A stretch of 63,947 bases of DNA, counting the filler, from Candidatus Hydrogenedentota bacterium (GTDB lineage Bacteria; JBFMHD01), in the NCBI GenBank assembly GCA_040752395.1. It is 14 parts of 14 records of this genome, joined end to end, with 100 filler letters (N's around TTAATTAATTAA, not from the genome) between each part and the next. Parts side by side here need not be neighbours in the genome. Positions count along the whole stretch, not along the records: positions 44,047 to 47,578 come from JBFMHD010000256.1; 13 more parts are not named here. One strand, 5' to 3'. Shown here piece after piece: positions 10,426-60,177 of the stretch. Position 1 is the stretch's first letter, and each line of letters starts with the position of its first letter. The notes under the pieces are model-generated. The model worked only from the letters and a program-made list of their open reading frames with translations, had not been told where the DNA came from and made no database searches. The position numbers and the translations under genes are program-made.

Positions 10426-10432
10426 TGTAGTA

Positions 10433-11682: not shown

Positions 11683-11695
11683 ATAAATTACCTCC

Positions 11696-15243: not shown

Positions 15244-16025
15244 GGTTTAGAGGCCCCGTACTTTTTATAATAAAATTCTTTTGCTCTCTTTTTATTACCA
15301 AGAAAATACCATTTAAACCAGAAAGAGAATATATTTCTTATACTTGTTTTGATAGTCTTGAAATCGCTGCATTTACCAGGCCTTATTTTTGAATAATGAG
15401 AATAATAATGTATCTGGAACTGAATAACATCAAGACCTATAGCCTGGGCTTTTAACATACATTCAGCTGGTATAAACGAACTATAACTCTCAAGCTCTAT
15501 ACCCTCACAAAAGAATTCTCTTGGATAAAATTGCACAAACTGAAAATCCTGTATAGGTGACAAAAAAAGTATTTTTATAAGCCAGTAATTTATACGGGAT
15601 TTAAGCCAGGGAAAATATGCTTTGGTTTTTGTAGTATCGTGTTTGAATGCTACGATAACATCATAATCTTTTAAAAATGGTATTACTTTTTCGAGGTCAG
15701 CAAGGCTAAAGTGACCATCTATATCGTTCCAGAAGACATAATCTTTAGTCACATATTTTCTCGCGGTCCTTACAGCATAACCAACCCCCATATTATAAGG
15801 ATGATGAATAACTTTCAGTTGCGGGATCTCTTTTTCGAGTCTATCAACGATCTCAGATGTAGCGTCAGTGCTCCCATCATCTATAAGAATGATCTCGAAA
15901 TCATCTGTAAATTTCTTGAACTGCTCAACCCATACCATTATCTGCTTTTCAACCAGTTCTGCTTCATTATATGCAAACGTAATAAGCGAAAACGAAAACC
16001 CCATTTTCTTGTTTTCGGCAGACAC
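15231..16025 (-). CDS. GT2 glycosyltransferase
   Basis: AYNEA, IDDGSTD, NMGVGYA and DID motif. Confidence 0.88.
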   Translation of the reverse strand: MSAENKKMGFSFSLITFAYNEAELVEKQIMVWVEQFKKFTDDFEIILIDDGSTDATSEIVDRLEKEIPQLKVIHHPYNMGVGYAVRTARKYVTKDYVFWNDIDGHFSLADLEKVIPFLKDYDVIVAFKHDTTKTKAYFPWLKSRINYWLIKILFLSPIQDFQFVQFYPREFFCEGIELESYSSFIPAECMLKAQAIGLDVIQFQIHYYSHYSKIRPGKCSDFKTIKTSIRNIFSFWFKWYFLGNKKRAKEFYYKKYGASKPWRE

Positions 16026-16047
16026 ATAGGTCTGCCCCTTCTGTCTT

Positions 16048-17421: not shown

Positions 17422-18502
17422 CTTTTATAACTTTCTCCATCTTTGTTTTAAATATTTCTTGCGAAAAATTCAAAGAATGCGCTCTTACCTCTTTTTTATC
17501 CCACGTTATTCTCTCGAATTTAGTTATAATGTCAAGCAGAGATTCAACACTATTCTCAAAATCAAAAAATAAGCCAGTTTTACCATCCAGGACTGTTTCT
17601 TTTGCACCACCCCTGTTAATAGCTATTACCGGCACACCACATGCCATAGCCTCCACCGGCGTAATACCAAAATCATCCACTGCTGGGAATATAAATCCTT
17701 TTGCGCTTCTTAAATAATCCCGTAGCTTAAAATCATTGACCCAGTCTGTAAATGCTACATTTTCCGGCGCCAATCTCTTATAATATGACAGCATCGAGCC
17801 TTTACCCACAATCAATAATCTTCTACTTGCATCTTTTTTAAAAGCTTCTAATAATATACCTATCCCTTTGTATGGTTCTATTGCCGAGACAGTTATGTAA
17901 TAATTCTCTGTTTTTATTTTCTCATTAAAAACAAAAAAATCAGTCCTTGCTGGCGGATAGATAACTCTTGAATCACGATTATAAATTCTTGAGATTCTCT
18001 CTCTGACAAACTCAGAGATAGCAACAAATTCGTCGACAAAAGAAGCTCTTTTTATATCCCATTCTCTTATTCGCGTGATGAATAAGTCAGTAAATATTCT
18101 CTTGAAACTTCCTTTCCTGAAATATACATCATACATATCATACGCATACCTCATAGGAGTTAAACAATAAGATATGTGTCTTGTATTCACATCCTTTTTT
18201 ATACTCTTAGCTACGCAATGTGAGATTGAGATAACAAGGTCATAACCGCTAAAATTAAAGCCCGAGATTGCAAAAGGGAATAAAGGCAGCATATAGCGAT
18301 AATAGAGAACTATCCCTGGAAAATACTGTAAAAAAGAGGTATAAATATTATTCTTTTTTATATCTTCATCAATAGGTTCAGGGTTATATATCAGTGTATA
18401 AATATCTGTTTTGCCAGTAATTGATAAAATATTTTTTAAACACTGTTCACCACCACGCATACCTGTTAACCAATCATGAACAATAGCTATCCGTTTTGGC
18501 AT
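17414..18502 (-). CDS. GT4 glycosyltransferase (WbaZ-like)
   Basis: VHDWLTGMRGGE, YCLTPMRY and DFGITPVEAMACG. Confidence 0.9.
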   Translation of the reverse strand: MPKRIAIVHDWLTGMRGGEQCLKNILSITGKTDIYTLIYNPEPIDEDIKKNNIYTSFLQYFPGIVLYYRYMLPLFPFAISGFNFSGYDLVISISHCVAKSIKKDVNTRHISYCLTPMRYAYDMYDVYFRKGSFKRIFTDLFITRIREWDIKRASFVDEFVAISEFVRERISRIYNRDSRVIYPPARTDFFVFNEKIKTENYYITVSAIEPYKGIGILLEAFKKDASRRLLIVGKGSMLSYYKRLAPENVAFTDWVNDFKLRDYLRSAKGFIFPAVDDFGITPVEAMACGVPVIAINRGGAKETVLDGKTGLFFDFENSVESLLDIITKFERITWDKKEVRAHSLNFSQEIFKTKMEKVIKGD

Positions 18503-19572
18503 AGAACTTCCTCAAATATTTTGAAAACCAAAAATGCTGTGTTTCTCCATTGATATTCTTTTACATAATCTATCCCTTCAACCACTAATTTTTTATAAGT
18601 GATCTCATCGTTCCAGATTTTCGCAATTAATAAAGCTGCTGAATCAACCTCAGCCGGTACGCTGATAATGCCTCGCTTGATATATGTATTTATCCTGCTG
18701 TCGTTTAAAACAATGGCCGGTGTGCCGAAACCTAAACCCTCTACTACCGACAACCCGAACCCTTCCTGACTCGATAATAAAAAAACAAATTTAGCTTTTC
18801 TATAATACTCAAATAATAATTCGTCACTTACTTTACCCTTAATCTCAATCTCGCCACGTAATATCATTTCATAATATTTTGTTATTAAATCTTTACTTAA
18901 ATCTGAAAATTCAAAACCTGTGCATACAATTTTATCTACAAGTCTAAATCTATTCTTCAAGACTAAAAAGATATCAAACATAAAATCCAGATTCTTATGT
19001 TCTTTTGCATTACCGCAATACAAAATTATATTCTCTTTATTCTCAATATTGCTGGTTGCTAAACTCATCTTTGCTGGTGTCGCTATCCTTATTTTTTCTT
19101 TATCAATCCATCTCGATAATTCGTTTCTGGAGACTATTGAATCGGTAATCACAATGTCTGCTGTTTTTTGTAAATAAAAGAGCATAAACTTTAAATAAAT
19201 CTCAGCAAAAAACCCAAGTTTTAATTCAGGTTTCAAATATAATAAGTCATGAACAGTAACAACCACCTTTGACTCTTTATTATTTTTTATTAAAGGCGTA
19301 TCAAAGTGCGGAAAAAAATATAGATCAAAATTAGATAGCCATATCTTAGTAAAATATATATGCTCCAGTAACGAATACACCCTGTATCTACAGGTACTCC
19401 ACTTGAAAAATCTATTTTGAAAGAGAGGATCAATGTGTTCCAATATTAAAATATTAAAATTATATTTATCATTGTTTATCTCTTTTAAATTATATAAGAG
19501 TTCTTCAACATATCTTCCAACACCACCATACCCTATCATTCTTGCATCAATAAAGATATTTTTTCGCATCAA
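18487..19572 (-). CDS. GT4 glycosyltransferase (MtfB/WbpY-like)
   Basis: IDAR..GGVGRY, TVHDL, HKN and EGFGLSVVE. Confidence 0.85.
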   Translation of the reverse strand: MMRKNIFIDARMIGYGGVGRYVEELLYNLKEINNDKYNFNILILEHIDPLFQNRFFKWSTCRYRVYSLLEHIYFTKIWLSNFDLYFFPHFDTPLIKNNKESKVVVTVHDLLYLKPELKLGFFAEIYLKFMLFYLQKTADIVITDSIVSRNELSRWIDKEKIRIATPAKMSLATSNIENKENIILYCGNAKEHKNLDFMFDIFLVLKNRFRLVDKIVCTGFEFSDLSKDLITKYYEMILRGEIEIKGKVSDELLFEYYRKAKFVFLLSSQEGFGLSVVEGLGFGTPAIVLNDSRINTYIKRGIISVPAEVDSAALLIAKIWNDEITYKKLVVEGIDYVKEYQWRNTAFLVFKIFEEVLCQNG

Positions 19573-20645
19573 TTGCCTAAGGAGATTCCCATACCCCTGG
19601 TCTGTTTGATAATTTCTGAATTTTTATCAATTTTGTGATATATACCGATAGCATTTTTTATAGGGACAGATTCTATGTTAAAACCCTTTAAACAAACCAT
19701 ATGACCAAACATGGACTCAGCTATAAGCCTTGTTGCAGCAGCACCATATCTCGTCCCAAGAATCCTATCAAATGAACACGGTGACCCTCCTCTCTGTATA
19801 TGGCCAAGAACAGTGCTCCTCACCTCTATACCTGTCCTTTTTTCTATTTCTTTCCCGATACTCTCACCTATCTTCCCAGGTCCTATCCCTGCACCATAAA
19901 CCACCTTATCATTTTTAGGCATAGCACTTTCTGCAACCACAACTATGGAGAACGTGCTACCAGAGCGATACCTCTTTTTCAAAAACTGACATACCTTTTC
20001 AATATCATATGGTATCTCTGGAATAAGTATAACATCAGCCCCACCCGCAATCCCCGCATAAAGAGCGATCCAGCCAGCATGCCGACCCATTACCTCAAGT
20101 ACCAGGATACGATGATGCGATTCTGCGGTTGTATGTAATTTATCTATGGCATCAGTTGCAGTATTAACAGCTGTGATAAATCCAAAAGTATAATCTGTAT
20201 ATGATAGATCGTTATCTATAGTTTTTGGAACACCCACTATTTTTACCCCTAACTCGTAAAACTCCTGAGCCAATTTTAACGAACCATCACCACCAATAAC
20301 AATCAAGGCATCTATCCTCTCTTTGGTTAATCGGTTTATTGCTTTAATGATTAATCTTTTTATTTTTTTTTGTTTTTCCGTGGTTTGGTCTCTGTCAAAA
20401 AATATTTTAAAAGGCCCCTTATTAGTCGTCCCAAGTATGGTTCCGCCTCTCGGTAATATACCCTTGACATTTAAGAGTGTAAGCTCCAGAAATGACCCTG
20501 GCGACACAAGTCCCTGAAAACCATCCCTTATGCCGAAAACCCTATATCCATAAACTTTAATAGCTACTTTTGTTGCAGCTCTGATAACAGCATTCAACCC
20601 GGGGCAATCGCCGCCAGATGTCATAATACCTATTCGCTTGATCAT
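19569..20645 (-). CDS. pfkA: 6-phosphofructokinase, group III type, probably ATP-dependent
   Basis: TSGGDCPGLN, GGTILGT, GGDGS, PKTIDND, EVMGRHAG and LGHIQRGG. Confidence 0.92.
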   Translation of the reverse strand: MIKRIGIMTSGGDCPGLNAVIRAATKVAIKVYGYRVFGIRDGFQGLVSPGSFLELTLLNVKGILPRGGTILGTTNKGPFKIFFDRDQTTEKQKKIKRLIIKAINRLTKERIDALIVIGGDGSLKLAQEFYELGVKIVGVPKTIDNDLSYTDYTFGFITAVNTATDAIDKLHTTAESHHRILVLEVMGRHAGWIALYAGIAGGADVILIPEIPYDIEKVCQFLKKRYRSGSTFSIVVVAESAMPKNDKVVYGAGIGPGKIGESIGKEIEKRTGIEVRSTVLGHIQRGGSPCSFDRILGTRYGAAATRLIAESMFGHMVCLKGFNIESVPIKNAIGIYHKIDKNSEIIKQTRGMGISLGN

Positions 20646-20670
20646 TTCTTATTTCCTCTCTCTATCCCCA

Positions 20671-21012
20671 CTCCTCTGAAAAACATTGTAACTCTAATGA
20701 TATCAAGTAGAAGCAAGAGGCAAGAAGCAAGAAGCAAGAAGCAAGATAACGGAAGAAGTGAGAGGTGTCAGGACAGGCTACAGGCTACGGACTACAGCCG
20801 GCTGGAGACAAAAGCCAAAAGCCAGCTGAAAAGTCTTGAGTCTTGAGTCTCGAGTCCTGTTTTGACTCACGACTTGCGACTTGTGACTCACGACTCTTTT
20901 CATATCATCTTTAGTTTTTCATCCTTTGTGCCTTTGCCTGCCTGCCGCGGCGGAGCGCGGCGCAGGCAGGTGCCTCTGTACCTTTGAAAGTAAAAAGTAA
21001 GAAGTATCGAAA
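20671..21012. repeat. Long modular repeat chain containing a nested 34-bp palindrome
   Basis: Contains the CTCCTCTGAAAAAC, AAGCAAG, GTGTCAGGAC, CAGCCGGCTG, GTCTTGA/GACTCAC, TATCATCTTTAG, GTGCCTYT and AAGTATC modules. Confidence 0.93.
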
Positions 21013-21021
21013 GGACAAACT

Positions 21022-21831
21022 TTATCTTACTGTAATTTTTTTCTCGCCAGTAGCAAAAAGACCATAATACTCAGCTGGTACATTATCTTTTACTGCTTCA
21101 TAAAGAAAATGTTCTGCAAAACCACCAATAAGGTCATCACCCACAATATCAGTCACCATAAACTCGCAAAACCCTGATATAATGTTAGAATCCTTCTTTA
21201 AGACGCAGGCAAAAACAGACGGCACACCACCTTGATTGTAATTAATTACCTGTTTTATGTCCTGATTAATACTTGAGAATTTTATTTTATCACCAGCTTT
21301 AAATTTATCTACCCCGGTTTTATCAATAAAGAAATATTGTATATAATCTTCTCCTGGAGCCGATTTGAAACTCCCTGCTTTCCTTATAAGAAACTGAGTC
21401 TTGTATTCTATCCCTGTATTCAATTCAATAGCTAATTTAATTCTGTTTGCATCCATCACCCCGACTATACCAGCGGACTCGGGTATAACCGTAACCACCT
21501 TTGTTGTAGTTTGATCAGTGGAAGCTTTACCTATTAATCTCATCATATAAAGAGGTAATTTTTTAGCTGCTTTTACTGTTAGTATACAATTTCTCTGAGA
21601 TACTACTGGAGTCTGATCTTTAAAAATTATATTCTTCTGTTTTGCTTTTGAATTTAAATAATCTATAGCCTTTTGAGGTTCATAAGGAAGATATTGACCT
21701 GCTTCCTTGAGAAGTAATTCTATCTCTTTCTGCAATGCTCGTCGGCCCTTAATACTTCTGTATACATCAGCCACCATACCAACAGCTATTAAAAACGCGA
21801 GTACACTACCAATTAGTATCAATCTTTTCAT
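21022..21831 (-). CDS. Hypothetical protein with N-terminal TM helix (weakly Tad/TadG-like)
   Basis: 269-aa ORF. Hydrophobic N-terminus followed by DVYR..RRALQ. Confidence 0.5.
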   Translation of the reverse strand: MKRLILIGSVLAFLIAVGMVADVYRSIKGRRALQKEIELLLKEAGQYLPYEPQKAIDYLNSKAKQKNIIFKDQTPVVSQRNCILTVKAAKKLPLYMMRLIGKASTDQTTTKVVTVIPESAGIVGVMDANRIKLAIELNTGIEYKTQFLIRKAGSFKSAPGEDYIQYFFIDKTGVDKFKAGDKIKFSSINQDIKQVINYNQGGVPSVFACVLKKDSNIISGFCEFMVTDIVGDDLIGGFAEHFLYEAVKDNVPAEYYGLFATGEKKITVR

Positions 21832-21872
21832 ATTGCAATTTTATAGTAAAAAATATAATTATAGTCAAGAAA

Positions 21873-21985
21873 AATTTTCTGATACTTCGTATTCCCTCAG
21901 TTTTCGGTGGAGTTTCTTTATCTTGCTTCTTAAGTAAATTCTACAGCACCAATAACTGACGGATTACGATACTTCTTACTTTTGC
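21873..21985. repeat. Repeat element, subfamily 2, between divergent genes
   Basis: TTTTCTGATACTTC, GTATTCCCTCAGTTTTCGGTGG, TTATCTTGCTTCT, AATAACTGACGGATTAC and GATACTTCTTACTTTT. Confidence 0.7.
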
Positions 21986-21997
21986 CAGTGAGAAAAG

Positions 21998-22879
21998 ATG
22001 AAACCTGATTATTTGAAGATAAAACTGAGACCTCCTAATAAAAATAGAAAACATATCGAGATGCTTTTAAAAAAATACAATCTTAGAACAATCTGTGATT
22101 ATGCATTATGCCCGAATAAATGTGAATGTTATAATAACTCTGAGCTAACGTTTCTTATTCTGGGTCCTTACTGCTCTCGTAAATGTGGATTCTGTAGGAT
22201 CAGCACTATCGATTCTTCACCAGATCTCGATTATAGTGAACCGTATAATATTTTAAAAATCGCAAAGATACTTAAATTAAAATACGTTGTAATAACCTCA
22301 ACAACAAGGGATGATTTACCATTTTATGGCGCCTCACATTTTGCAGAGATAACCACACTTCTTAAAAATAACAATATCCCTGTCGAGTTACTTATACCGG
22401 ATTTCAATGGTGATAATAAATGTTATGAAATAATTTATAATAGTAAACCTGATGTTATCTCACATAATATTGAGACTGTACCTGCTCTCTATAACAAATT
22501 CAGGCAAGATTTCTCTTTTGATAGAAGTATCTCGCTTCTTAAGTGGTTCAGAGAAAAAGATAAAGATGTCATTCTCAAGACCTCAATACTTGTTGGGATT
22601 GGTGAAACTATCAATGATTTAACAAAAGTTTTTACCATCCTCTATAATTATCAAATAAATATTTTAATTATAGGTCAGTATCTCCAGCCAACAAAAAATA
22701 ATCCTTTAGTTGTAAAATATTATTCTCTTGATGAATTTAAACTTCTTGAGAATCTTGCTTTAAGATGTGGTATCCCTGTGGTTGTATCATCGCCGTTTGC
22801 TCGAAGCTCGTATAAAGCTTCCAGCATTAAATCAAAAGTTGTTATCGAATCTGCTTGTGGAGAGTCTGTACAAATATAA
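21998..22879 (+). CDS. lipA: Lipoyl synthase
   Basis: CX4CX5C (CDYALCPNKCEC), CX3CX2C, HNIETV, GQYLQP and RSSY. Confidence 0.93.
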   Translation: MKPDYLKIKLRPPNKNRKHIEMLLKKYNLRTICDYALCPNKCECYNNSELTFLILGPYCSRKCGFCRISTIDSSPDLDYSEPYNILKIAKILKLKYVVITSTTRDDLPFYGASHFAEITTLLKNNNIPVELLIPDFNGDNKCYEIIYNSKPDVISHNIETVPALYNKFRQDFSFDRSISLLKWFREKDKDVILKTSILVGIGETINDLTKVFTILYNYQINILIIGQYLQPTKNNPLVVKYYSLDEFKLLENLALRCGIPVVVSSPFARSSYKASSIKSKVVIESACGESVQI

Positions 22880-24364
22880 ACCAAAATCATTATAATACTT
22901 GACATTTACGAGCTCATAATCATCACTGCTAAAATTCCTGTCAGCGCTTAATAAATAATATCCGATATTATTCTCTTTTATCTTTTCGCTATATTCCTTT
23001 AATTTATTGAATTGTATCACATTAAAACTTTTGACGTTCTCTAAAAAAGCTAATTCAAAACCTGAGATAAGATTATTCGAAACAATGTTTTTATCTAAAA
23101 CTATCTCTCCACTCATCTGTTGAACAGCTTTGTGATGTGACGTGACAGGATGAACTAAATAGAATATACTTGCGGGTATAACATAACTCGCTATCCAGCA
23201 TAGCATAAATACAGGTAAAACTATCATTTCTATCCAGCTCTTTCTTAGTATAATGCAGTGCTTCGAAAAATTGTTGACAGAGAGAAAGAACAATCTACCA
23301 AGTAAGACAATCTCAATCCCAAGACTTGCAAATAAATACCGCTCCTCTATATATAAGAAGAGATAACCAATATGATATAACAGAATAGCAAAAATTAGAA
23401 AAAAATCATCTCTATTCATTTTTTTAAAATTAATAAATATAAGAGCTAATAGAGTAAAAGTTATAACAGGGAGTCTATAAAAGTTTATAAATAAGTCTTT
23501 TTTAACGTTATCTTTTACTGCGTGAAAAAATTGTTTTAATGAGATATTTAGCTTAAGTGTTGAAGCAAAATTTGTAGGATTACTCCAGAAATGAGTCCTC
23601 TCTCTCTCTGGCTCTAAATATTTATCACCCCAGTCATTTTGGTTCTCACGCTGTACTAATAAATAATAAAGATTGTATCTTACAACAGAATTGTCTGAAA
23701 AGATTATTTTATAAGGTGAATAAAAGATACAAAGACCAATGATAAATATCATAAACTTTTTTATGCGGGACTTTTTTATAAAAAGTAAAAACAAATATAA
23801 TATAAAACCATAGATTATTAAATAAGATTTGACAATACTTCCAAGCCCACAAATCAATCCTGAAATAAACTCATTTTTTAATCTGTCAAAAGTCAATGAT
23901 TGAGAGTAGACTCTTATTAATAATAATATAAACACTGCCACAAGTAGATCAGGAGTCATTGTTAATAATGGGTTACCGCTTAATAAATATAATAAAGCAA
24001 TCACGCAGCTGAACAATGGATAAATAAGGCAGTGGGTAGAGATATTCTGCCATTTGATACCGCCAGCTGCAAGGGGCACCCATACTAAAAAATATATCCC
24101 TGCACTCCAGCAGATCCCTATTATTAAAGAGAGGTATTTAGCACAATATATCGGATTTAATTTTAAAAAATGTACTGGTATGAGTAAGAGCGTATAAGCA
24201 GGGCTCCAGTATCCTGTAAAACCAGACAGCTCTCCACAAGATAATATCCTTGAATTGTCAAGATAACTCAAGCCATCAGAAGAAACAATAGCACCACTAT
24301 TCTTTATAAAAAAACAAACCGCAGATAAATATATAACAAAAAACAGAATTAAAAGTTTTTTAAT
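22832..24364 (-). CDS. Polytopic membrane protein, GT-C fold-like glycosyltransferase; possible ATT start
   Basis: DGLSY..GYWSP, TPD and EERY motifs with many TM segments. The frame is open to an ATT at 24364 preceded by AAGGGG. Confidence 0.6.
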   Translation of the reverse strand: MKKLLILFFVIYLSAVCFFIKNSGAIVSSDGLSYLDNSRILSCGELSGFTGYWSPAYTLLLIPVHFLKLNPIYCAKYLSLIIGICWSAGIYFLVWVPLAAGGIKWQNISTHCLIYPLFSCVIALLYLLSGNPLLTMTPDLLVAVFILLLIRVYSQSLTFDRLKNEFISGLICGLGSIVKSYLIIYGFILYLFLLFIKKSRIKKFMIFIIGLCIFYSPYKIIFSDNSVVRYNLYYLLVQRENQNDWGDKYLEPERERTHFWSNPTNFASTLKLNISLKQFFHAVKDNVKKDLFINFYRLPVITFTLLALIFINFKKMNRDDFFLIFAILLYHIGYLFLYIEERYLFASLGIEIVLLGRLFFLSVNNFSKHCIILRKSWIEMIVLPVFMLCWIASYVIPASIFYLVHPVTSHHKAVQQMSGEIVLDKNIVSNNLISGFELAFLENVKSFNVIQFNKLKEYSEKIKENNIGYYLLSADRNFSSDDYELVNVKYYNDFGLYLYRLSTSRFDNNF

Positions 24365-24380
24365 AGTTTAACCCCTTTCA

Positions 24381-24470
24381 TCTTGCTTCTTGCTTCTTGA
24401 TATCCCCTCAGTCTACTACGGGTCTAAAGACCCTCACTACTCTGTGCCTCTTTCTTTATCTTGCTTCTTG
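24381..24470. repeat. Repeat modules overlapping a gene 3' end
   Basis: (CTTGCTT)n plus CTCAGTCTACTACGGGTC-taaa-GACCCTCACTACT. The same module occurs at 33129-33163 with a different 4-nt loop. Confidence 0.8.
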
Positions 24471-25612
24471 CTTCTTACATAATATAATGCTCTGGTAAAA
24501 AATATAAAAGAAATAATGGCATATAAAATAATTATATATTCTCCACCATAAAGCCTCGTCATAATAACATCACTACCATATATTGCTATGGCTTCTAATT
24601 GTATATAAACCTTACCAAAAATCGATTCAAGCAAAGTTAATGGTCTGTTATGATTGTATAAGGTCAAATAAAACATATTTACTATAACTACTGAGGTTCC
24701 ACAAAGTTGAATAAACACACTGAATAAAAATATTATAAAAAAAAGAATCTTATTAATCTCTTTATAAGCAAAACTATAAATTGAAATAAATAGCAGAATA
24801 AGATATGGAACCATAAGCCGCGGTCCGTACTCAAGATTAATCTCTTTGTCCCGCCAGAAACTGTATAACAAAAGATAAGAAAGAAAAATAATCCACGAAA
24901 TTAAAATATCTTTTATCTTTATGGACTCCTGCTCTTGCCGGAATAATATGACTAATTTGTAAAAAGTATAAAAAAACGTTAATATTAATAATGGGAAATA
25001 GTAAAATATGGACTTGAATGGACTTAATAAATATATCCTTAAACCCTCTAATAAGTTCGAATCCCATAAATTCTCATATCCTGTTTCAAGTATATCCCCT
25101 GTTCTTATATAATTATAATACGCTGCAATAATAAGAGCTAAAAACAACCAGGCTGAAATCATTAAAATGGATTGTTTATTTCTATAGAGTAAATAGTAAT
25201 ATACTACTAAAAGAAATATCGCAATGATTGTATCAAATCTCACTAAAAATAACAGAGATACAATAACCCCGATAATTAAACTATTATATAATTTTGCGTC
25301 TTTAAAAGTTCGCCAGAATAATAAAACAAGTAAAAACGTTGTAAGAACTGTATTGAAAAAATACTCTGCATAAACCCATACTGGAGACGCAAACCCGATT
25401 ATTATTGAACATAACGCTGATTTATATGTATCCAGTCTCGTTCGGCAAATAAGATATGCTACTACAACTGTCAAAGCAGCTGAAAGAATACTTAAAAGAG
25501 AGCAAAACCAGTGTCGCATAACCTCTTTAGCTGTCTCACCTTTGCAGAATCTTGAAAAGAAATCACCTGCATAATAAAAAGGTATGGCAATAAGTGACAT
25601 ACCTATACCAAA
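24437..25612 (-). CDS. Polytopic membrane protein, GT39/GT-C-like (5' truncated)
   Basis: YNYIRTG..ETGY, LLSPFKSIFYYFP and YGPRL. Similar in architecture to 54889-56185. Confidence 0.65.
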   Translation of the reverse strand, partial: FGIGMSLIAIPFYYAGDFFSRFCKGETAKEVMRHWFCSLLSILSAALTVVVAYLICRTRLDTYKSALCSIIIGFASPVWVYAEYFFNTVLTTFLLVLLFWRTFKDAKLYNSLIIGVIVSLLFLVRFDTIIAIFLLVVYYYLLYRNKQSILMISAWLFLALIIAAYYNYIRTGDILETGYENLWDSNLLEGLRIYLLSPFKSIFYYFPLLILTFFYTFYKLVILFRQEQESIKIKDILISWIIFLSYLLLYSFWRDKEINLEYGPRLMVPYLILLFISIYSFAYKEINKILFFIIFLFSVFIQLCGTSVVIVNMFYLTLYNHNRPLTLLESIFGKVYIQLEAIAIYGSDVIMTRLYGGEYIIILYAIISFIFFTRALYYVRSKKQDKERGTE

Positions 25613-29427: not shown

Positions 29428-32400
29428 TTAATAATTGAATTCGAAGGTGATTTTGCCGAAGTTGTCGCTATAATCGTCGCCAAATGGTTCCCAGGATGGG
29501 TCACCATAGCGGGTACGCTTGTACTCGAGGAATAATCGTGCATAGTTTGTTAGATAATATTCGATTTTACTCTGAAAGATATTTGTCTGGTATCTGTTGT
29601 TTGTTGTAAGATTTAAGTTCGTCGGTCGTTCAATCCTGTATTTTGTCCAGAGCCTTATGGAGTTTGTTATTTTATCTTCAAAATAGAGTTCATATATGTT
29701 TTTTTCTTCGTATTTATTAGTTTCAAAATTACTTCGATTGCCACGATTGAAAGTATATTTTTCTTTGTAATATTCGTAATAAAGCGAGACTGCTATTTTA
29801 GGGATACCGTAATATCCGATATTTCCTTTTGCGAATCGTCGAAAACCATCATCATCTGAGATTCTATCTATATCATCGTATTCCATCCATAGACCGAATG
29901 GTCCTATGGATTTAGAATAAAATAGATTAAACCCTTTCTGGTCGGTCTGCCACTCATCATAAGACATCGGATCATCACGCCATCTGGGCTTAAAATTAGT
30001 GCCGAGTTTCCTGTACTTTGTTCGCAGGAACGAGTTATCAAATAGAACATTTTTAAGTTTTATCTCAAAATTTATGTAGTCATCGTTTTCTTTGATTGGT
30101 GTTTGTAGTTTTTCTGTAAATGTAGGGTCTGTTAGATTAGAGATGTTTTTCTGACCGTATTTTGCAAGATAGTTATAGCCATAAATGAGCTCAAGAGTAA
30201 GTTTATCAGAAAAAAACCGTTTATAGGTCTCAAACAGAATAACAGCATCTCTACCAACGAGTTCTGTGATAATGTTTGTATTATCAGGTATGGTCAGTAC
30301 ACCATTTACAATCTGTGCATTTGCCAGTGATTTTGCTGTGTCGTGATAATACACTGCAGTTGTTCTAAAAAATAGGTTCCAGGGAAAATTGCGTTCAAAT
30401 TGTAAACCCGTTGTAAATGAATCGTATCTATGTTTTATGATAAACCAGTCATAACTTGTGCCTTCAATATTCCCTTCAATATTTAATCCTTTCCATTCCC
30501 ATTTAGCCGGGAAGATATGTATGCCGTAATCTATCCAGAGGTTGCCGAGCGTAATCTGCGAGACGTACGGTAATAAATTATTTGCTTGCATTTTATAAGC
30601 TATCATATCTATATCTGGTATGCTGGTATATATTTTATTATGTGTATCAGCATAGACTGTTCTGTCATAATATTCAGTTGTAGATACTATTTCTACTCTT
30701 GAGTTAAAATTGTCAATTTTACCATCAGCTATAAGTTTAGCATAATCACAGACCTCGTGATTCATCTCAGGTGTATACTGATACATAGCCCAGGCGACAC
30801 CTGAAAAATCGATATTTCCGCGTTTACCAAACCCGATTGGGATTTGCAGGAATCTGGCGACCTCAGGCAGTGATACTTCCTCAGGTACCAGGCCTTTACC
30901 AACTGCGTAGAACTTATCAATCCAGACAATGCCTGATGTAGCCTCATTGGTTTCGCCGATAATAGTTAAATCCAGTCTTTTTATCTTTTCTTTATTAAAT
31001 ATGTTATTTATCTTGGTGCTTTCCTGGAGTAGATTTAATTTATCAAGTTCTATCTCGAACATCCGCCACTCTTTATTAATCAAAGCGTATTCAAAAGTTT
31101 TACCCCATATTTCGCCATCAGCATCTATACTTGAGAATTGGAAACTATTTCGTGTTCCATCGCCTTTAATCCATATCCGTATTTTTTCTACTCGTGACCA
31201 ATCGAGCGGTTTTTGGGGTGTAGCAGATGCTGTGACCCAGGTAGCGCTACCACGCTCTGTGGTCAAGGTATAGTCCATAATCATCGAGTAATCGCCTTCC
31301 TGTACATCGCGATCGGACCGGAGATCGAGGTCAGATAAATCGCCTTCAAAGACGCGGTAAATAGTATTCGGGTTAACTCTTTCAAACCCATCGATCAACA
31401 CCTTGTTAGTTCCGAGAGGCCTTTCAGTAAGAGTAACTTTTGGTTTTTCAGAATATTCAATATCATCAAATACAACTTTTCCACTGCCACCATCTTTTTT
31501 AGAGATAGCGATACAGAATAGTTTAAGTTGAGTCAGATCAAGTTTATTATCACCGCCCCACCAGTATTGGAACTCATTAAATGGTATTTTTTCGATAACC
31601 CAATCATCGGTAGCTGTAGCTTCCTCGTATTTAACACCGAAATTACTGCCGTCGGCATCAACGAGTTTGATCTCTATATTATTTTTTGAGCCAACCCCTT
31701 TATATCGGATTTTTATCTCATCTAAACTACTGAAATCGTCGGTTAAATCTTTTTCTATCTGGACCCAGTCACCGACTTCAAGCGAGTAATCAAACTCAAT
31801 TGCGTCACCAACAACACCCGTGGTCTTTCTTATATTTCTCGATGTACCCTCAGCACCTATAAGTCTCCATCTGCTTCTTTGTGACATATCATCGAGTATT
31901 TTGAATTCTTTTTTTTCTTGTGGTTTTATCTCTTCGGGTGTTTCTCTTCTGAAATACTCGATATCATCAAAAGCGATCTTACCTTTACCTCCATCAATTT
32001 TAGAAACAGCGATATTCATCATTTTGAGTTTAGTTAAATCAAGAAGTTTATCACCGGCCCACCAGTGCTGGAAGTATTTTATAGGTATAGTTTTTGTTAT
32101 CCAGCCGTCAGTAGGTGTTCCTGGCGAGAATTTCACGCCGAAATTACTGCCGTCAGCATCGACGAGTTTTATCTCTATATTATTTTTCGAGCCTTCGGCT
32201 TTGTAAGTGATTCTAAGTTTTTCCAACCCGCTCCAGTCACCTTTCATATCTCGTGTTATTTGTGCCCAGTCACCTTTTTCAAGTGAATACGTAAACTCGA
32301 GTGCTTTGCCTTTAGCGGTGTCAACTTTCTCTAAACTTTTAGTAGTACCCTCTGCACCTTCAAGTCTCCATTTTAATCTATTTTCCATATCATCAAGGAG

Positions 32401-32993
32401 CTTGTATTCAATTTTATCTTCAGTAGTTTCTATTATGTCAACTCTTTCGTCTCTTCCGATAATTGCAAGGTTGTCTATAACTATTTTGCCAGAGCCTACC
32501 TTTGTAAAAGCAAGGTTTAGGTTTTCAGGTATAGTTAGATCAATGTCAGCAAAAGCAGAGAGCGGTATCTTAACCATCTGCCACTCACGAGTTGTCACGA
32601 AATGGTCATTAGATAAAACCTTTTTCTCATTACCTTTTTCATCTTTGATTCCGATCTCGAATATTTCCCAACCTTCGCCGCCTCTTACCATAAATGAAAG
32701 ATACATCTGGTTTGATATATTATAGCCTTTTAGTATTGTTCCACAACCGGCGAACCCTAAACGATTGATTTTATAATTTAATTCCAGTGAATAACCGACC
32801 TCAGTATAGGCATCTTTACCACTAACATATTTAACCTCAAGAGATGAGCCTGATTTCAAGTCGGCGAAATCAAAATACCCTGTGCCGAGAGCATTTGGTG
32901 GGCCACCTTGATTGAAATTATCAATTATTAGTGGTTCGGCATGGACAGAGGCAAGAAGCAAGATAACGGAAAGAAAGATAACGAAAGAAGCAA
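29428..32993 (-). CDS. Large secreted protein with four CBM11/CIA30-like domains and a putative C-terminal beta-barrel (5' truncated)
   Basis: Repeated (I/L)DD(F/M)...LSFxxRG / I.IK.xD..G / W....IP...F / I.xDDI units. Signal cleavage VHA-EP. Aromatic alternating C-terminal ~450 aa ending FNY. Confidence 0.7.
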
Positions 32994-33093: not shown

Positions 33094-33436
33094 GTGAAAT
33101 TTGCAATTCGACATGCGCGGCGAGTCGACTCAGTCTACTACGGGTCTTGTGACCCTCACTACTTCGAAAAACTTCGCAACTCTAATAATTCGGGGTACAG
33201 ACTACGGGCTACGGACTACAGCCGGCTGGAGACAAAAGCCCGGAGCCTGCTGAAAAGTCTTAAGTCTTGAGTCTTGAGTCTCGAGTCCTGTTTTGACTCA
33301 CGACTCTCGACTCCCGACCCCTAACCCCTAACCGACGCCCCCTAATATACCCCATCCCCTAATATCCTTTGTGCCTTTGTGCCTCTTTCGTTATCTTTCT
33401 TTTCCTTTATCTTGCTTCTTGCTTCTATGATATCGC
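33094..33436. repeat. Modular repeat chain downstream of pyrH
   Basis: Hairpin GGGTC/GACCC module, GAAAAAC..AACTCTAATAATT, CAGCCGGCTG, GTCTTGA/GACTC, CCCCTAA, GTGCCT and CTTGCTT modules. Confidence 0.92.
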
Positions 33437-34875: not shown

Positions 34876-35172
34876 CTCCTCTGAAAAACGTTGTAACTCT
34901 AATAATATCAAATAGAAGCAAGAAGCAAGATAACGGAAAGAAAGATAACGAAAGAGGCAAGATAAACAAACATCTAGTTTTTCATACGTTGTGTAGAGCG
35001 CAAAAACGCAATAACCCAATAACCCAAGAACCCAATAACCCAATAGTGTAGAGCGCAAACCGCGCTCATGAGTACTCCTTCGAAAAAAGTTCGGAGTTCG
35101 AAGCTCGGTGCTATTATTACGAACTCCTAACTTCTAACTCCTATGAAAAGTTAAAAGTTAAAAATATCATAT
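34876..35172. repeat. Modular repeat chain between rpsB and tsf
   Basis: CTCCTCTGAAAAAC, (AAGCAAG)n, GTGTAGAGCGCAAA twice, (AATAACCC)n, and AGTTCGG/CTAACT arrays. Confidence 0.92.
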
Positions 35173-36767: not shown

Positions 36768-36968
36768 GCTACAGGCTACAGGCTACGGACTACAGCCGGC
36801 TGGAGCCCGAAGCCCGGAGCCTGCTGAAAAGTCTTGAGTCTTGAGTCTTGAGTCTCGAGTCCTGTTTTGACTCACGACTTGCGACTCACGACTCACGACT
36901 CTTTTCATATCATCTTTAGTTTTTCATACCTTGTGTAGAGCGCAAACCGCGCTCATGACGACTCCTTC
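36768..36968. repeat. Modular repeat chain at a contig start
   Basis: GGCTACA, CAGCCGGCTG, GTCTTGA/GACTCAC, TATCATCTTTAG and a single GTGTAGAGCGCAAACCGCGCTC. Confidence 0.92.
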
Positions 36969-39651: not shown

Positions 39652-39848
39652 CTCCTCTGAAAAACGCTGTAACTCTAATAATTCGGGCTACAGGCTACGG
39701 GCTACGGACTACAGCCGGCTGGAGCCCGAAGCCCGGAGCCTGAAGCCAACATATCATCTTTAGTTTTTCATACCTTGTGTAGAGCGCAAAAACGCAATAA
39801 CCCAATAACCCGATAGTGTAGAGCCCAACCCGAGCTCATTACGACTTC
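39652..39848. repeat. Modular repeat chain lacking the GTCTTGA/GACTCAC module
   Basis: CTCCTCTGAAAAAC, CAGCCGGCTG, TATCATCTTTAG, GTGTAGAGC twice and AATAACCC. Confidence 0.9.
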
Positions 39849-47084: not shown

Positions 47085-47123
47085 ACCTCTTTGAGCTTCT
47101 TGCCTCTTTCGTTATCTTAATTA

Positions 47124-47208
47124 TGGAGGGAGGAGGATTCGAACCTCCGAAGACTTAAAGCCAACAGATTTACAGTCTGCCCCCTTTGGCCAGCTTGGGT
47201 ATCCCTCC
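47124..47208 (-). tRNA. tRNA-Tyr(GTA)
   Basis: GGAGGGATACCCAAG...GCAGA-CTGTAAA-TCTGT, long variable arm and GGTTCGAATCC. CCA is not encoded. Confidence 0.95.
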
Positions 47209-47515
47209 TCTGAAAAACATTCTAACTCTAATAATTCGGGCTACAGGCTACGGGCTACGAACTACAGCCGGCTGGAGCCCCCTATGAAAAGTCTTGAGTC
47301 TCGAGTCCTGTTTTGACTCACGACTCGCGACTTTTGACTCTTTTCATATCATCTTTAGTTTTTCATCCTTTGTGTAGAACGCAAAAACGCAATAACCCAA
47401 TAACACAATAACACAATAGTGTAGAGCGCAACCCGCGCTTATGTTGACTCCCTCGAAAAAGTAAGAAGTAAGAAGTATCAGAAAAAATTTTAATCTTTTA
47501 ATCTCTCAATTTTTA
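47209..47515. repeat. Modular repeat chain filling the tRNA-Thr to tRNA-Tyr spacer
   Basis: Begins TCTGAAAAAC immediately at the tRNA-Tyr 5' end. Contains CAGCCGGCTG, GTCTTGA/GACTC, TATCATCTTTAG, GTGTAGA twice and AAGTATCAG. Confidence 0.92.
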
Positions 47516-47521
47516 AACATA

Positions 47522-47578
47522 AGCCATCGAAGGGACTTGAACCCCCGACCTAGTGATTACAAATCACTTGCTCTACCC
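47522..47578 (-). tRNA. tRNA-Thr(TGT), 5' truncated by the contig end
   Basis: GGTAGAGCAAGTGA-TTTGTAA-TCACT...GGTTCAAGTCC..CGATGGCT. Confidence 0.9.
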
Positions 47579-50904: not shown

Positions 50905-51204
50905 AAAGAGGCACAAAGGCACAAAGGATGAAAAAGATAGGAGTTAGGAGTTCGTAATAATAGATACGAGCTCCGAGCTCCGAACTCCGAACTTTTTCGA
51001 AGGAGTCAACATGAGCGCGGGTTGCGCTCTACACTATTGTGTTATTGTGTTATTGGGTTATTGCGTTTTTGCGCTCTACACAAAGGATGAAAAACTAAAG
51101 ATGATATAAAAAGAGTCGTGAGTCGTGAGTCGCAAGTCGTGAGTCAAAACAGGACTCGAGACTCAAGACTCAAGACTTTTCAGCAGGCTCCGGGCTTCGG
51201 GCTC
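50905..51204. repeat. Modular repeat chain in reverse orientation with nested direct repeats
   Basis: CACAAAGGATGAAAAA at 50920 and 51079; TGCGCTCTACAC at 51023 and 51070. Runs to the contig end. Confidence 0.92.
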
Positions 51205-53524: not shown

Positions 53525-53755
53525 CTCCTCTGAAAAACGCTGTAACTCTAATAATTCGGGGTACAGGCTACGGGCTACGGACTACAGCCGGCTGGAGGCC
53601 GGAGCCTGCTGAAAAGTCTTGAGTCTCGAGTCTTGTTTTGACTCACGACTCTTTTCATATCATCTTTAGTTTTTCATCCTTTGTGCCTCTGTGCCTTTGA
53701 AAGTAAGAAGAGTATCAGAAAAATTTTTAATCTTTCAATCTTTGAATCTTTCAAC
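53525..53755. repeat. Modular repeat chain between hflX and the carboxyltransferase gene
   Basis: CTCCTCTGAAAAAC, CAGCCGGCTG, GTCTTGA/GACTC, TATCATCTTTAG, GTGCCTYT, GTATCAG and AATCTTT arrays. Confidence 0.92.
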
Positions 53756-54788
53756 TTATAATATACTTTTATCTATCCTGTAAATCAAATCTTTTATGCC
53801 AATTTTTTCTCTTGCACTTATAAATACTGAGCCATCTTCTTCGTTTTGTGGATGATTTTCTAATTTGTCAATTTTATTATATACTTCAAGAATAGTAGTA
53901 CCACAAATCCCAAGTTCTTTAAGAGTATCAATTACTATCTCTTTTTCATTAAAAGCAGCCGGATTCGATATATCAATTAAATGAATTATAAAGTCGGCGA
54001 AAACAACAACTTCGAGCGTTGATTTAAATGACTCTACCAGTTTATGCGGTAACCTTCTTATAAACCCAACGGTGTCCGAGATAACAACGAACTTACCTGA
54101 TGGTAATCTAATTCTTTTAGTTGTTGGATCAAGGGTTGTAAATAGCTTATCTTCAATTTTTGTAGATGATTTTGTTAAAAGATTAAATAAAGTGGATTTT
54201 CCTGCATTTGTATAGCCAACTATGGCTATCTTAAATATCTCTTCTCTTCTTTTTCTCTGGGTTATTCTTCTTCTTTCAATCCTGGATAGCCGTTCTTTAA
54301 GCTTTAATATTCTATTTTCAATACTACGTCGATCAAGCTCTATTTGTTTTTCGCCTGGTCCACCTCTTATCTGTGATTTTCCAAATTGTCTTTCAAGATG
54401 CTGCCATCTACCACGTAATCTTGGTAATAAATATTCAAGTCTTGCTAATTCTACCTGTACTTTTGCTTCATAGGTTTTTGCATGCAAGAAAAATAATTCT
54501 AATATTAACTCTGTCCTGTCTATTACCTCACATCCTATTGTTTCAGCGAGATTTCTTTGTTGGTTTGGTGCCAGTTCTCCATCAAAAATTATCCTGTCAA
54601 GATTGTTATCTATTTTTATCTCTCTTAACAACATAACTTTACCATAACCTATAAAGGTAGCAGGATTTATCTCTTTTAAATTAAATAACTTAGACCCCAC
54701 AACAATATTACCCACAGATTTAGCTAAACTTTCTAATTCTACTATTGAAATAGATAAATCATTTAGATTAGATTTTGGAAGTCTGCAC
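53756..54788 (-). CDS. hflX: GTPase HflX (5' truncated)
   Basis: GPGEKQIELDRR, GYTNAGKSTL, LFTTLDPT, DTVGFI and NKID. Confidence 0.95.
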
Positions 54789-58508: not shown

Positions 58509-59996
58509 TCAGGCCAATCGGGCTGATACACTATCGATTACGGTTTTTAAAACCTTTAGTCGGGCATATAATTTGCAATTTGATTCTACGATTGTCCAGG
58601 GTGCATAAGTGGTGCTTGTTCTAAAGAGCATTTCATCAACAGCTTCTTTATATGCATCCCATTTTTCTCTGTTTCTCCAGTCTTCATCAGTTATCTTCCA
58701 CTGTTTATGTTTTATTTTCTGTCTTTGTTTAAATCTTCGCAGCTGTTCCTCTTTATCAATCTGTATCCAGAATTTAATTAAAACAGTTCCGAAATTTGTG
58801 AGTTGTTCTTCAAATTCATTGATCTCTTTATATGCCCTTTTCCAATCATCTTCAGTACAAAATCCTTCTATACGTTCAACAAGCACCCTGCCATACCATG
58901 TTCTATCAAATATTGCGATGTGTCCAGCTTTGGGTATAGCTCTCCAGAACCTCCAGAGATAATGATGGGCTTTTTCTTCATCATTCGGTGCAGCTATCGG
59001 TATAACCTCATAGCCTCGTGGGTCCATATTTTGAGTTAATCTTCGGATATTGCCTCCTTTACCCGCAGCATCCCAGCCCTCATAAGTTATAATAACTGGT
59101 ATCCTTTTAATGTAAATCTGATGTTCAATCTCTCTGATTCTCTGTTGATACTCATCTAACTTCTTTTTATACTCTTCTTTTTCAACCCTCTTAGATAAAT
59201 CAACCCTATCAAGCATTGAAGAATCAAGCGCTTTTAGTTTGGCTATAGAGACTCTATCTTTATTCTTTTTTATCTCTGTTTCTTTAATATCATTTACTTT
59301 ATCCTGTATAGCCTCAATTACCCTTGTAAATATTTTTACTGTTGCAAATCTTCTATCCTGAGATTCAACAATTGTCCAGGGTGCATATTCTGTATCAGTT
59401 TTTTCTATCATTTCTTCAATAGCTGTAGCATAGGTATCATATTGTTTATGATGTTTCCAGTCTTCTTTTTTTATTTTCCACGATGTAGTTTTATCTTTTT
59501 CCATTTTTTTAAATCTTTTTTTCTGTTCTTTTTTGCTTATATGAAGAAAAAATTTGATTATAACATTGCCTGCATCAGCAAGTTGACGTTCAAAAGATTT
59601 AATCTCATCATACGCTTTTTTCCATTCCGCCTCTTTTACAATCCCATCGATTCTTTCAACAAGAACGCGTCTGTACCAGCTTCTATCAAATATTGCGATT
59701 CTACCTTTAGCAGGCGTCTTTAACCAGAATCTCCAGAGAAAAGGCCTTAATCTTTCTTCGTCAGTTGGAGGTAGCGTTGGATAAACATTAAAGCCTCTTG
59801 GGTCAAGCGGTAGCATAAGTTGGTTAATTAATGTCCCTTTACCTGCTGCATCCCAACCTTCAAAAACAATGATAAGAGGTATTTTTAAATCTTTTGCCTC
59901 TCTCTGTAACTCGCCGAGTTGCAATTCAAGTTTAGACATTATCTTTTTGTATTCAGGCTTTTCTAATTTTTTTGATAAATCAACTTTTTCTAACAT
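58509..59996 (-). CDS. pap: Polyphosphate:AMP phosphotransferase (two-domain PPK2)
   Basis: Two copies each of EGWDAAGKG, DPRG, FDR(S/T)WY and APWTIV. Confidence 0.92.
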   Translation of the reverse strand: MLEKVDLSKKLEKPEYKKIMSKLELQLGELQREAKDLKIPLIIVFEGWDAAGKGTLINQLMLPLDPRGFNVYPTLPPTDEERLRPFLWRFWLKTPAKGRIAIFDRSWYRRVLVERIDGIVKEAEWKKAYDEIKSFERQLADAGNVIIKFFLHISKKEQKKRFKKMEKDKTTSWKIKKEDWKHHKQYDTYATAIEEMIEKTDTEYAPWTIVESQDRRFATVKIFTRVIEAIQDKVNDIKETEIKKNKDRVSIAKLKALDSSMLDRVDLSKRVEKEEYKKKLDEYQQRIREIEHQIYIKRIPVIITYEGWDAAGKGGNIRRLTQNMDPRGYEVIPIAAPNDEEKAHHYLWRFWRAIPKAGHIAIFDRTWYGRVLVERIEGFCTEDDWKRAYKEINEFEEQLTNFGTVLIKFWIQIDKEEQLRRFKQRQKIKHKQWKITDEDWRNREKWDAYKEAVDEMLFRTSTTYAPWTIVESNCKLYARLKVLKTVIDSVSARLA

Positions 59997-60018
59997 AAAA
60001 TCTCTCTCATAAACCTTT

Positions 60019-60177
60019 CTCCTCCTTTGATTAAGAAGCAAGAAGCAAGATAACAGAAGAAGTGAGAGGTATCAGGACGGGCTACAGGCTACAGGCTCCA
60101 GCCGGCCGTAGTCCGTAGCCCGTAGTCTGTAGCCTGCTGAAAAGTCTTGAGTCCTGTTTTGACTCAGAACTCACGAC
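60019..60177. repeat. Modular repeat chain between tilS and pap, with an internally inverted module
   Basis: AAGCAAG, GTATCAGGAC, inverted GCCGGC module and GTCTTGA/GACTCA. Overlaps the tilS stop. Confidence 0.9.

Follow-up and report, generated by a model that had tools for sequence, protein, structure and literature searches.

Chains of repeats fill the spacers between genes in this Candidatus Hydrogenedentota genome and end at the tetranucleotide GGAG, which is usually part of a Shine-Dalgarno (SD) sequence and which at one locus is formed by the first four bases of a tRNA-Tyr. This locus raises the question of whether GGAG is a site at which the repeats dock or a sequence that they bring with them. 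If GGAG is a true docking site, the repeats would be mobile or recombining elements that home to ribosome-binding sites (RBSs), with direct leverage on translation and operon structure. This would explain how entire intergenic regions can be rewritten while the genes survive. It would also provide a testable handle on the spread of heptamer-array mosaics, a question that, to our knowledge, dates back to the first descriptions of the cyanobacterial STRR and SDR repeats. If GGAG is carried, the chains would be portable RBSs in a genome that mostly lacks them, which is nearer to the known behavior of MITEs.

The tRNA-Tyr junction

The window analyzed here, that is, the whole stretch of 63,947 nucleotides (64 kb), consists of contigs strung together with 13 N44-TTAATTAATTAA-N44 linkers, and many of its pieces end within repeats or chains. 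The features at the tRNA-Tyr locus are as follows (here and below, a slash within a sequence marks a joint).

47124 to 47208, minus strand: intact tRNA-Tyr (anticodon GTA), called by ARAGORN and by Rfam (RF00005, 56.6 bits, model positions 1 to 71, full)
47205 to 47208, minus strand: GGAG, nucleotides 1 to 4 of the mature tRNA-Tyr and putative docking tetranucleotide (tRNA calls and motif scan)
47209 to 47235, minus strand: module A, in gene sense ATTATTAGAGTTAGAATGTTTTTCAGA (repeat families D3 and D5)
47209 to 47447, minus strand: composite X...A unit (repeat families, chain reading, and inverted-repeat analysis)
47448 to 47451, minus strand: distal GGAG of this X...A unit, at the joint TTTTTCGAG/GGAG/TCAAC (motif scan and chain reading)
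47452 to 47520, minus strand: probably older distal module (GTAAGAA array, TATCAG, and array of the 8-mer TTTTAATC), extending to the 3' end of tRNA-Thr (families D18 and D19; 85% to 53711 to 53758)
47521 to 47578, minus strand: 3' part of tRNA-Thr(TGT), truncated where the contig ends (84% to positions 288 to 337 of contig C344 of genome G001, a tRNA-Thr by ARAGORN)

On the plus strand, the junction reads ...gggtatccCTCC/TCTGAAAAACATTCTAACTCTAATAAT..., with CTCC at 47205 to 47208 and TCTGAAAAAC beginning right beyond it, at 47209. Read on the minus strand, it is ...ATTATTAGAGTTAGAATGTTTTTCAGA/GGAGGGATACCC, with the module A end TTTTTCAGA abutting GGAG. The earlier note on this DNA had described module A as abutting nucleotides 1 to 4 of the tRNA, and the placement of the tRNA by ARAGORN and Rfam together with the strand reading bears this out. 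The note had also held that this GGAG cannot have come from the element. It is indeed host sequence, because nucleotides 1 to 4 lie inside the intact acceptor stem formed by GGAGGGA and the 3'-terminal TCCCTCC of the tRNA and because the tRNA-Tyr(GTA) of a distant metagenome-assembled genome (G001) likewise begins with GGAG in a setting without module A. On contig C344 of that genome, ARAGORN placed tRNA-Thr(TGT) and tRNA-Tyr(GTA) with 113 nt between them, and this spacer is made of different heptamers.

The entire 312-nt spacer that separates tRNA-Tyr from the truncated tRNA-Thr consists of modules found elsewhere in the window (families D3, D7, D10, D12, D13, and D19). In gene sense, the X...A unit opens at its distal end with an X module that contains a GAGCGC-N5-GCGCTC-type hairpin, followed by an 8-mer array and an MKN-like linker, and continues proximally with a terminator-like heptamer hairpin, a GGCTACR array with the palindrome CAGCCGGCTG, and module A. 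The array-like spacer before a tRNA-Gly ends in ...AAAGAGGT/GCGG instead of GGAG.

Architecture of the chains

In the window, spacers are filled by module chains that extend between the stop codon of one gene and the start region of the next, and every chain is co-oriented with its downstream gene. The module kit comprises dozens of period-7 and period-8 tandem arrays, hairpins whose two arms are an array and its complement, with a palindrome between them (39686 to 39747, with 31-nt arms, and 47287 to 47342), and unique linkers, such as module A. A-tract/hairpin/T-tract structures are also present, with fold z-scores of -2.3 and -2.6. Modules occur in variable number and combination, and whole modules are present or missing from one chain to the next; among the window chains, no clean filled/empty pair was found for modules within arrays. 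The gene-side or contig-edge ends that were read stop at A/GGAG in all 14 cases, and these ends belong to six module types, namely, ...TTTTTCAGA, ...TTGTCATA, ...TTCTTTATA, ...GCAAGAAAA, ...AGACTGA, and ...TCAAA.

The composite X...A units are about 180 to 240 nt long; they begin with module X (TCNNCATGAGCGCGGKTTGCGCTCTACAC, which contains a 6-bp hairpin) and finish with module A. The three units with both ends on one contig are all flanked by G(G/A)AG on both sides, as GGAG...GGAG at tsf and tRNA-Tyr and as GAAG...GGAG at 39652. These flanks, which resemble a 4-bp duplication or a recombination core, make it doubtful that there is no target duplication, as had been proposed earlier. The hairpin GAGCGC-N5-GCGCTC lies 7 nt from the distal GGAG, and inverted-repeat analysis of the units found no hairpin at the module A end. 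Terminal inverted repeats are absent in the three units; the sole inverted match common to them, the 8-nt pair TGAAAAAC and GTTTTTCA, joins the module A end with an internal linker and not with the opposite end of the unit.

A search of the window with Rfam returned three tRNAs and nothing else, and scans with sigma-70 and terminator consensus sequences detected no promoter in module A. No transposase, recombinase, integrase, Y1, or RAYT protein was found in the 30 ORFs scanned with Pfam, out of 46 ORFs of at least 100 amino acids plus one of 84 amino acids. The chain between rpsB and tsf is free of the terminator-like hairpin module; many other chains place one between the upstream gene and the gene at which the chain ends, which casts doubt on the proposal that the insertion sites are harmless.

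Junctions with GGAG elsewhere in the window

The exact sequence TTTTCAGAGGAG occurs seven times, at 3351, 3432, 20671, 34876, 39652, 47205, and 53525, while the copy at the LacI-family gene has the variant junction TTTTTTTAGA/GGAG. The copies of module A and their surroundings, with neighboring genes here and below named by Pfam (GlgE-like, LacI, EF-Ts, OTCase/YgeW-like, SDR-DegT, and OadA-like), are as follows.

3351 to 3381, minus strand: GGAG and module A, 6 nt ahead of the ATG of a GlgE-like gene (motif scan, Pfam, and start distance)
3432 to 3462, minus strand: GGAG and module A (CTTCGCAAC variant), internal to a chain and with no adjacent gene (repeat families and motif scan)
3776 to 3811, plus strand: module A (TTTTTTTAGA variant) and GGAG (3808), 5 nt ahead of a LacI-family gene (Pfam and start distance)
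20671 to 20701, minus strand: GGAG and module A, 25 nt upstream of the start of PFK, which has its own GAGG closer to the start (motif scan and Pfam)
33164 to 33190, minus strand: module A variant TTTTTCGA; AGTAG and a hairpin module stand in the place of GGAG (repeat families and chain reading)
34876 to 35086, minus strand: X...A unit in the rpsB-tsf spacer, with GGAG at 34876 to 34879, 4 nt before the ATG of tsf (EF-Ts), and at 35075 to 35078 (motif scan, Pfam, and chain reading)
39652 to 39833, minus strand: X...A unit with its proximal GGAG 8 nt ahead of an 84-amino-acid ORF and its distal GAAG beside unique DNA (chain reading and alignment with the external copy L001, see below)
53525 to 53555, minus strand: GGAG and module A, 6 nt ahead of an OadA-like carboxyltransferase gene (motif scan, Pfam, and start distance)

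Modules other than A adjoin GGAG as well.

1322 to 1401, minus strand: GCAAGAA array at GGAGG, 6 nt ahead of the start (1315) of a GT4 glycosyltransferase gene (Pfam and chain reading)
7298 to 7341, minus strand: non-A module (CTTCTYA array ... TTGTCATA) at GGAG, 6 nt ahead of an OTCase/YgeW-like gene (Pfam and chain reading)
10433 to 10473, minus strand: non-A module (...TTCTTTATA) at GGAG, 7 nt ahead of an SDR-DegT fusion gene (Pfam and chain reading)
36959 to 36962 (approximate within 1 to 2 nt), minus strand: distal GGAG of an X module beside unique DNA, GATTCAGGAA/GGAG/TCGTCATGAGCG (chain reading)

Further non-A modules adjoin GGAG at 34194 (a pyrH-like gene), at 60022, and at the contig edge at 58472. 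The junctions that had been listed before, for module A at 3351, 3808 (the variant), 34876, 39652, and 53525 and for other modules at the SD sequences of the YgeW-like (7298) and SDR-DegT (10433) genes, hold at these coordinates, and each of the junction variants TCTGA, TATGA, TTCGA, CTCGA, and TTTGA was found.

GGAG is present in eight of the nine window copies of module A and also in the external copy L001. The bases that follow GGAG at the junctions are A, A, T, T, G, A, G, T, and G, and the flanks are unrelated to one another, so that repeat similarity stops precisely at GGAG in every module A copy compared. The wider motif TTTTCNNNGGAG (TTTTC-N3-GGAG) occurs 13 times against 0.73 expected, a count reached in none of 100 shuffles; 11 of the 13 occurrences lie inside chains, the exceptions being 21901 (in a hairpin module) and 59731 (within an ORF).

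The k-mer repeat masks covered k = 13 and k = 11, the latter for 41 of 42 rows. Gene starts were the longest-ORF calls, three of them adjusted (GT4, SDR-DegT, and 58509), and the following counts of GGAG distances are therefore approximate: among 13 chain-adjacent genes, GGAG lies 4 to 8 nt before the start in 8, lies at 19 to 25 nt in 3 (PFK, the pyrH-like gene, and the 58509 gene), and is absent in 2, with starts at 21998 and 21831. Chain-free genes have GGAG at 4 to 9 nt in 1 of 28 cases and at 10 to 14 nt in 4 more, and the difference between chain-adjacent (8/13) and other (1/28) genes corresponds to a Fisher P value of 1e-4. This association of chains with GGAG is as compatible with chains that bring GGAG as with chains that seek it. 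G follows the GGAG at which chains end in 5 of 12 cases (binomial P = 0.06), which is weak evidence for native GGAGG sites. Upstream of tsf, GGAG is found within 40 nt in 16 of 22 distant genomes.

Copies and relatives outside the window

A contig scan for module A gave at least five matches; of those listed, four were chance matches and one was true. The latter (L001, on contig C128 of the metagenome-assembled genome G001) lies on a 2.2-kb contig and contains a chain that is identical to 39652 to 39775 for about 120 nt and shares the absence of the hairpin module. It adjoins a different gene than the chain at 39652, and the similarity stops exactly at GGAG, where the host flank lengthens the motif to GGAGGTG, a longer match to the anti-SD sequence. 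The alignment shows that an entire chain has been copied to a second locus and that its boundary falls exactly at GGAG.

Among G001, 60 relatives, 12 genomes of its order, and 25 genomes of its phylum, module A is present on contig C128 of G001 alone. G001 was ruled out as a close relative, with genes at about 70% nucleotide identity and an EF-Ts at 49% protein identity; the EF-Ts proteins of phylum members are 39 to 54% identical in all 24 genomes with a match (25 searched). None of the 60 relatives of G001 has an orthologue of the C128 gene above 38% identity. Given the distance of G001 and the lack of a close orthologue of the C128 gene among these 60 genomes, C128 is probably mis-binned or transferred. 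No empty orthologous site was found at the nucleotide level in G001 or in the phylum members compared. A 58-copy repeat of G001 was considered as a possible homologue and rejected, as it is an ordinary MITE with terminal inverted repeats (TIRs) and AT-rich flanks that does not dock at GGAG. Metagenome scans returned no matches to module A or to the GGACTACAGCCGGCTGGAG module, and viral contigs returned none to module A; four viral-contig matches to a 17-mer were discarded as unrelated coding DNA.

Origin of the GGAG at the junctions

We see about an even chance that (A)GGAG was there first and that the units were attached to it through targeted insertion or short-homology crossover. The gene-side GGAG would then belong to the host, either as the SD core of a gene or, at 47205 to 47208, as nucleotides 1 to 4 of tRNA-Tyr, and the joining reaction that copies units into position would require (A)GGAG in the recipient. 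Such joining may proceed by orientation-specific insertion at GGAG, which would leave GGAG on each side in the manner of a recombination core or a 4-bp duplication, or by an exchange between separate chains at their TTTTC-NNA-GGAG joints, through short-homology template switching or gene conversion. New units would be added at the gene-proximal GGAG, with older ones shifted upstream. At tRNA-Tyr, the state before insertion would have been ...CTTACTTTTTCGAG/GGAGGGATACC, a sequence that is like the module A end at 11 of 13 positions by manual count. Mobility, the order of insertion, and a joining enzyme are features that we infer.

Docking is favored because random insertion of an element that carries its own GGAG would give ...CAGAGGAG/GGAGGG at tRNA-Tyr and because random insertion into spacers of 100 to 500 nt would rarely place GGAG 4 to 8 nt from a start; for such an element, the observed SD spacing would require strong selection. 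The extended SD match of L001, the GGAG upstream of tsf in distant genomes, and the variant at 33164 are minor supports. The tRNA-Tyr junction is the only one that separates host GGAG from element GGAG, and it is a single case picked post hoc. Against docking, chain-free genes rarely have GGAG, and chains therefore either occupy most GGAG sites or bring GGAG. In addition, GGAG is kept where it is not an RBS, at the internal joint at 3432 and at 19 to 25 nt from PFK, the pyrH-like gene, and the 58509 gene; the starts at 21998 and 21831 lack it; and the tRNA-Gly spacer ends in AAAGAGGT/GCGG. The view taken in the earlier note, that GGAG is a target or crossover core and not a carried RBS, is therefore upheld in part: the tRNA junction, the end of repeat similarity at GGAG, the SD spacing in 8 of 13 genes, the 33164 variant, and the 16 of 22 tsf genes speak for it, and the single discriminating junction, the 1 of 28 chain-free genes, and the GGAG at internal joints and at 19 to 25 nt speak against it.

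The main rival, which we hold to be rather unlikely, is that the chains are portable RBSs whose repeat unit itself ends in GGAG (...TTTTTCAGAGGAG). The chains would supply a T-rich leader and an SD core in a genome that mostly has none, and selection would keep copies that lie 4 to 9 nt before starts. Such an element would have inserted just after nucleotide 4 of tRNA-Tyr, where it is viable since it restores GGAG, or a later GGAG-GGAG deletion would have produced the junction. This explanation accounts for the presence of GGAG in eight of nine window copies and in L001, for its retention at the internal joint at 3432 and 25 nt before PFK despite the gene's own GAGG, for its rarity at 4 to 9 nt from chain-free starts (1/28), for the lack of a clear enrichment of G after it (5/12; P = 0.06), and for the SD-like AAAGAGGT before tRNA-Gly, where an RBS is not needed. 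However, at tRNA-Tyr it demands a coincidence (a random position on the minus strand reads GGAG with a probability of 0.0025), one viable position in an estimated 70 or so of the spacer, or a second event, and 8 of 11 ends with GGAG would lie 4 to 8 nt from a start only under strong selection. The module A variant at 33164, which has no GGAG, and the SD match in the L001 flank, which runs past the repeat as GGAGGTG, also count against it. An explanation that dispenses with mobile units altogether, and which we regard as improbable, is that the chains are functional cassettes of terminator hairpin, leader, and SD that are homogenized by concerted evolution and array slippage. In this case, nothing but purifying selection would fix the chain edges, acting on the first base that is essential (the SD in genes, +1 in a tRNA). 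The filling of entire spacers from stop codon to SD, the co-orientation of all chains with the downstream gene, the A-tract/hairpin/T-tract structures with their fold z-scores of -2.3 and -2.6, and the rpsB-tsf chain, whose lack of a hairpin module is expected within an operon, all agree with functional cassettes. Selection alone, however, explains neither why module A is complete and leaves no extra base at tRNA-Tyr nor why two unrelated loci share an identical, sharply bounded chain of about 120 nt; moreover, module A has no sigma-70-like promoter, and a terminator-like hairpin has no obvious function in the spacer of a tRNA operon.

An assembly artifact, in which short contigs break in repeats and the joint between tRNA-Tyr and module A is chimeric, is in our judgment very improbable. 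The 13 linkers between the pieces and the many pieces that end within chains would fit such an origin, but the joint lies 370 nt inside its own contig (44047 to 47578), an assembler could not join on four shared bases, and junctions of this type recur with about 10 unique flanks and were also assembled independently in L001. Returning to joining at a pre-existing GGAG, a broader form of it, which we put forward tentatively and consider doubtful, would make the SD core GGAG a genome-wide att site for noncoding, orientation-specific miniature elements. Insertion at the gene-proximal GGAG, with GGAG left on both sides, would build chains upstream of genes that resemble cassette arrays, and chains would also grow upstream of any RNA gene that starts with GGAG.

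Relation to known repeat systems

The chains are a variant of mosaic intergenic repeats that are already known. Elhai et al. reportedly described the small dispersed repeats (SDR) of Nostoc in 2008 (Genome Res 18:1484). Dispersed elements of 21 to 27 nt inserted within arrays, as judged from filled and empty copies, characterize the STRR and SDR repeats of heterocystous cyanobacteria. The cyanobacterial STRR heptamer repeats are tandem 7-nt intergenic arrays (PMC2670836). The STRR and SDR repeats and the window chains have in common tandem 7-nt intergenic arrays that often form hairpins, short conserved pieces in a mosaic, nested mix, and locations near or inside structural RNA genes. The host here, in contrast, is a low-GC organism (34% G+C) that shows no cyanobacterial sign, and the sequences are unrelated. 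We know of no description of co-orientation with the downstream gene or of GGAG at every joint for STRR or SDR. Keyword searches of a literature collection for heptamer repeats, small dispersed repeats, and MITEs found no description of repeats docking at GGAG, which is not proof of absence. The window chains stand apart in that they are strictly co-oriented with genes, occupy spacers completely, and have a constant GGAG at every joint.

Like pneumococcal BOX elements (boxA-boxB(n)-boxC), SPRITE, and the BIME of E. coli, the chains are modular, with variable internal modules, clustering and nesting, and likely effects on cotranscribed genes, and both SPRITE and the window chains include a terminator-like hairpin element (PMC3049150). 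Terminal inverted repeats, target duplications, and an enrichment between convergent genes characterize BOX and RUP (PMC3049150). The window chains, in contrast, have no terminal inverted repeats, keep a single orientation upstream of genes, and stop at GGAG, and no boxA/boxC or REP-type terminal or palindromic modules were found in them (with Rfam, tRNAs alone; the sequences are unrelated).

The target of Correia elements is TA. Correia elements of Neisseria and signal-carrying MITEs resemble the chains in being small nonautonomous repeats immediately upstream of genes, a position from which they can supply expression signals (PMC10969869). Correia is a TIR element, whereas module A has no detected promoter and its flank is the nonpalindromic GGAG. 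Compared with a DDE-derived MITE, the X...A units have no terminal inverted repeats, and their GGAG/GAAG-GGAG flanks could be a duplication or a carried GGAG. Fixed tetranucleotides are known from IS608 (TTAC) and REP (GTAG). REP/RAYT and REPIN are treated in PMC3116915. IS200/IS605-type elements, their miniature derivatives, and REP/RAYT share with the chains a constant 4-nt host flank at one end of the element, strand- and orientation-specific placement, and a hairpin near an end; their tetranucleotide is one-sided, however, whereas GGAG here is two-sided, and there is no hairpin at the module A end. Integron cassette arrays grow by site-specific recombination at a short core between attI and attC. 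Unlike these, the chains are made of noncoding units without an attC-like structure, occur as arrays at many loci, and are accompanied by no integrase in the scanned ORFs; like integron cassettes, they have one orientation and units bounded by the same short core, and gene-proximal growth is plausible.

Shine-Dalgarno use and gene starts

Shine-Dalgarno sequences seem scarce in this organism, genes with docked chains excepted. Over the whole window, a GGAG at 4 to 9 nt from the gene start was missing in 27 of the 28 genes that carry no chain, and the upstream regions of most of these genes are AT-rich. Tandem arrays were read through by the minus-strand longest-ORF calls at 170-1435, 58509-60041, and 29428-32961, and automatic annotation of this genome would yield over-extended N-termini. 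The glycosyltransferase gene with a docked array (GT4) has its true start at 1315, given that residue 15 of this shorter form is where its Pfam domain begins.

Module X, the distal start of the composite X...A unit, itself resembles a gene start, with GGAG followed after 5 nt by ATGAGCGCGG, and it contains a hairpin, GAGCGC-N5-GCGCTC. Since the 8-mer arrays that come next differ in length, the reading frame downstream of it is not conserved. It takes this form at these positions:

35055-35086, module X
36930-36962, module X
47425-47451, module X
50994-51030, module X

The 39 nt that separate tRNA-Tyr from tRNA-Gly (47085-47123) likewise include array-like sequence, GATAACGAAAGAGGCAAGAAGC, and at their end the SD-like AAAGAGGT immediately precedes tRNA-Gly.

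A matching chain and a separate MITE in a distant MAG

The module-A match on a 2.2-kb contig (C128) of the distant MAG G001 lies in a chain (positions 1-165 of locus L001) that is identical over ~120 nt to window positions 39652-39775, despite a nucleotide identity of only ~70% between the genes of this MAG and the window. No close orthologue of the C128 gene was found among 60 relatives. This points either to mis-binning of the contig or to transfer of the chain from one lineage to another.

G001 also has a MITE of its own, with 58 copies of ~330 nt each (loci L046-L075, e.g., L046 and L057), terminal inverted repeats CGACCTGTATGGTTAAG and CTAACCATACAGCTCG, AT-rich flanks, and short tandem arrays inside. 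GGAG docking was absent for this 58-copy repeat, and its internal box, TTTTGCTTCGCAAC..., is similar to the module-A variant CTTCGCAAC at window positions 3437 and 33164.

Composition of the window

The contigs are joined by 100-nt linkers of the form N44-TTAATTAATTAA-N44:

3623-3722, contig join
7342-7441, contig join
25613-25712, contig join
10 further linkers, contig joins

Because the window consists of contigs strung together in this way, gene neighborhood across linkers is not real. Apart from one 18.2-kb piece (7442-25612), the pieces grow steadily shorter, their lengths running from 3719 to 3543 nt, as though ordered by length. A PIN-domain ORF (11696-12190) is flanked on both sides by a direct repeat of ~90 nt (11202-11286 and 12241-12334), in positions upstream of this ORF and of a WbqC-like gene.
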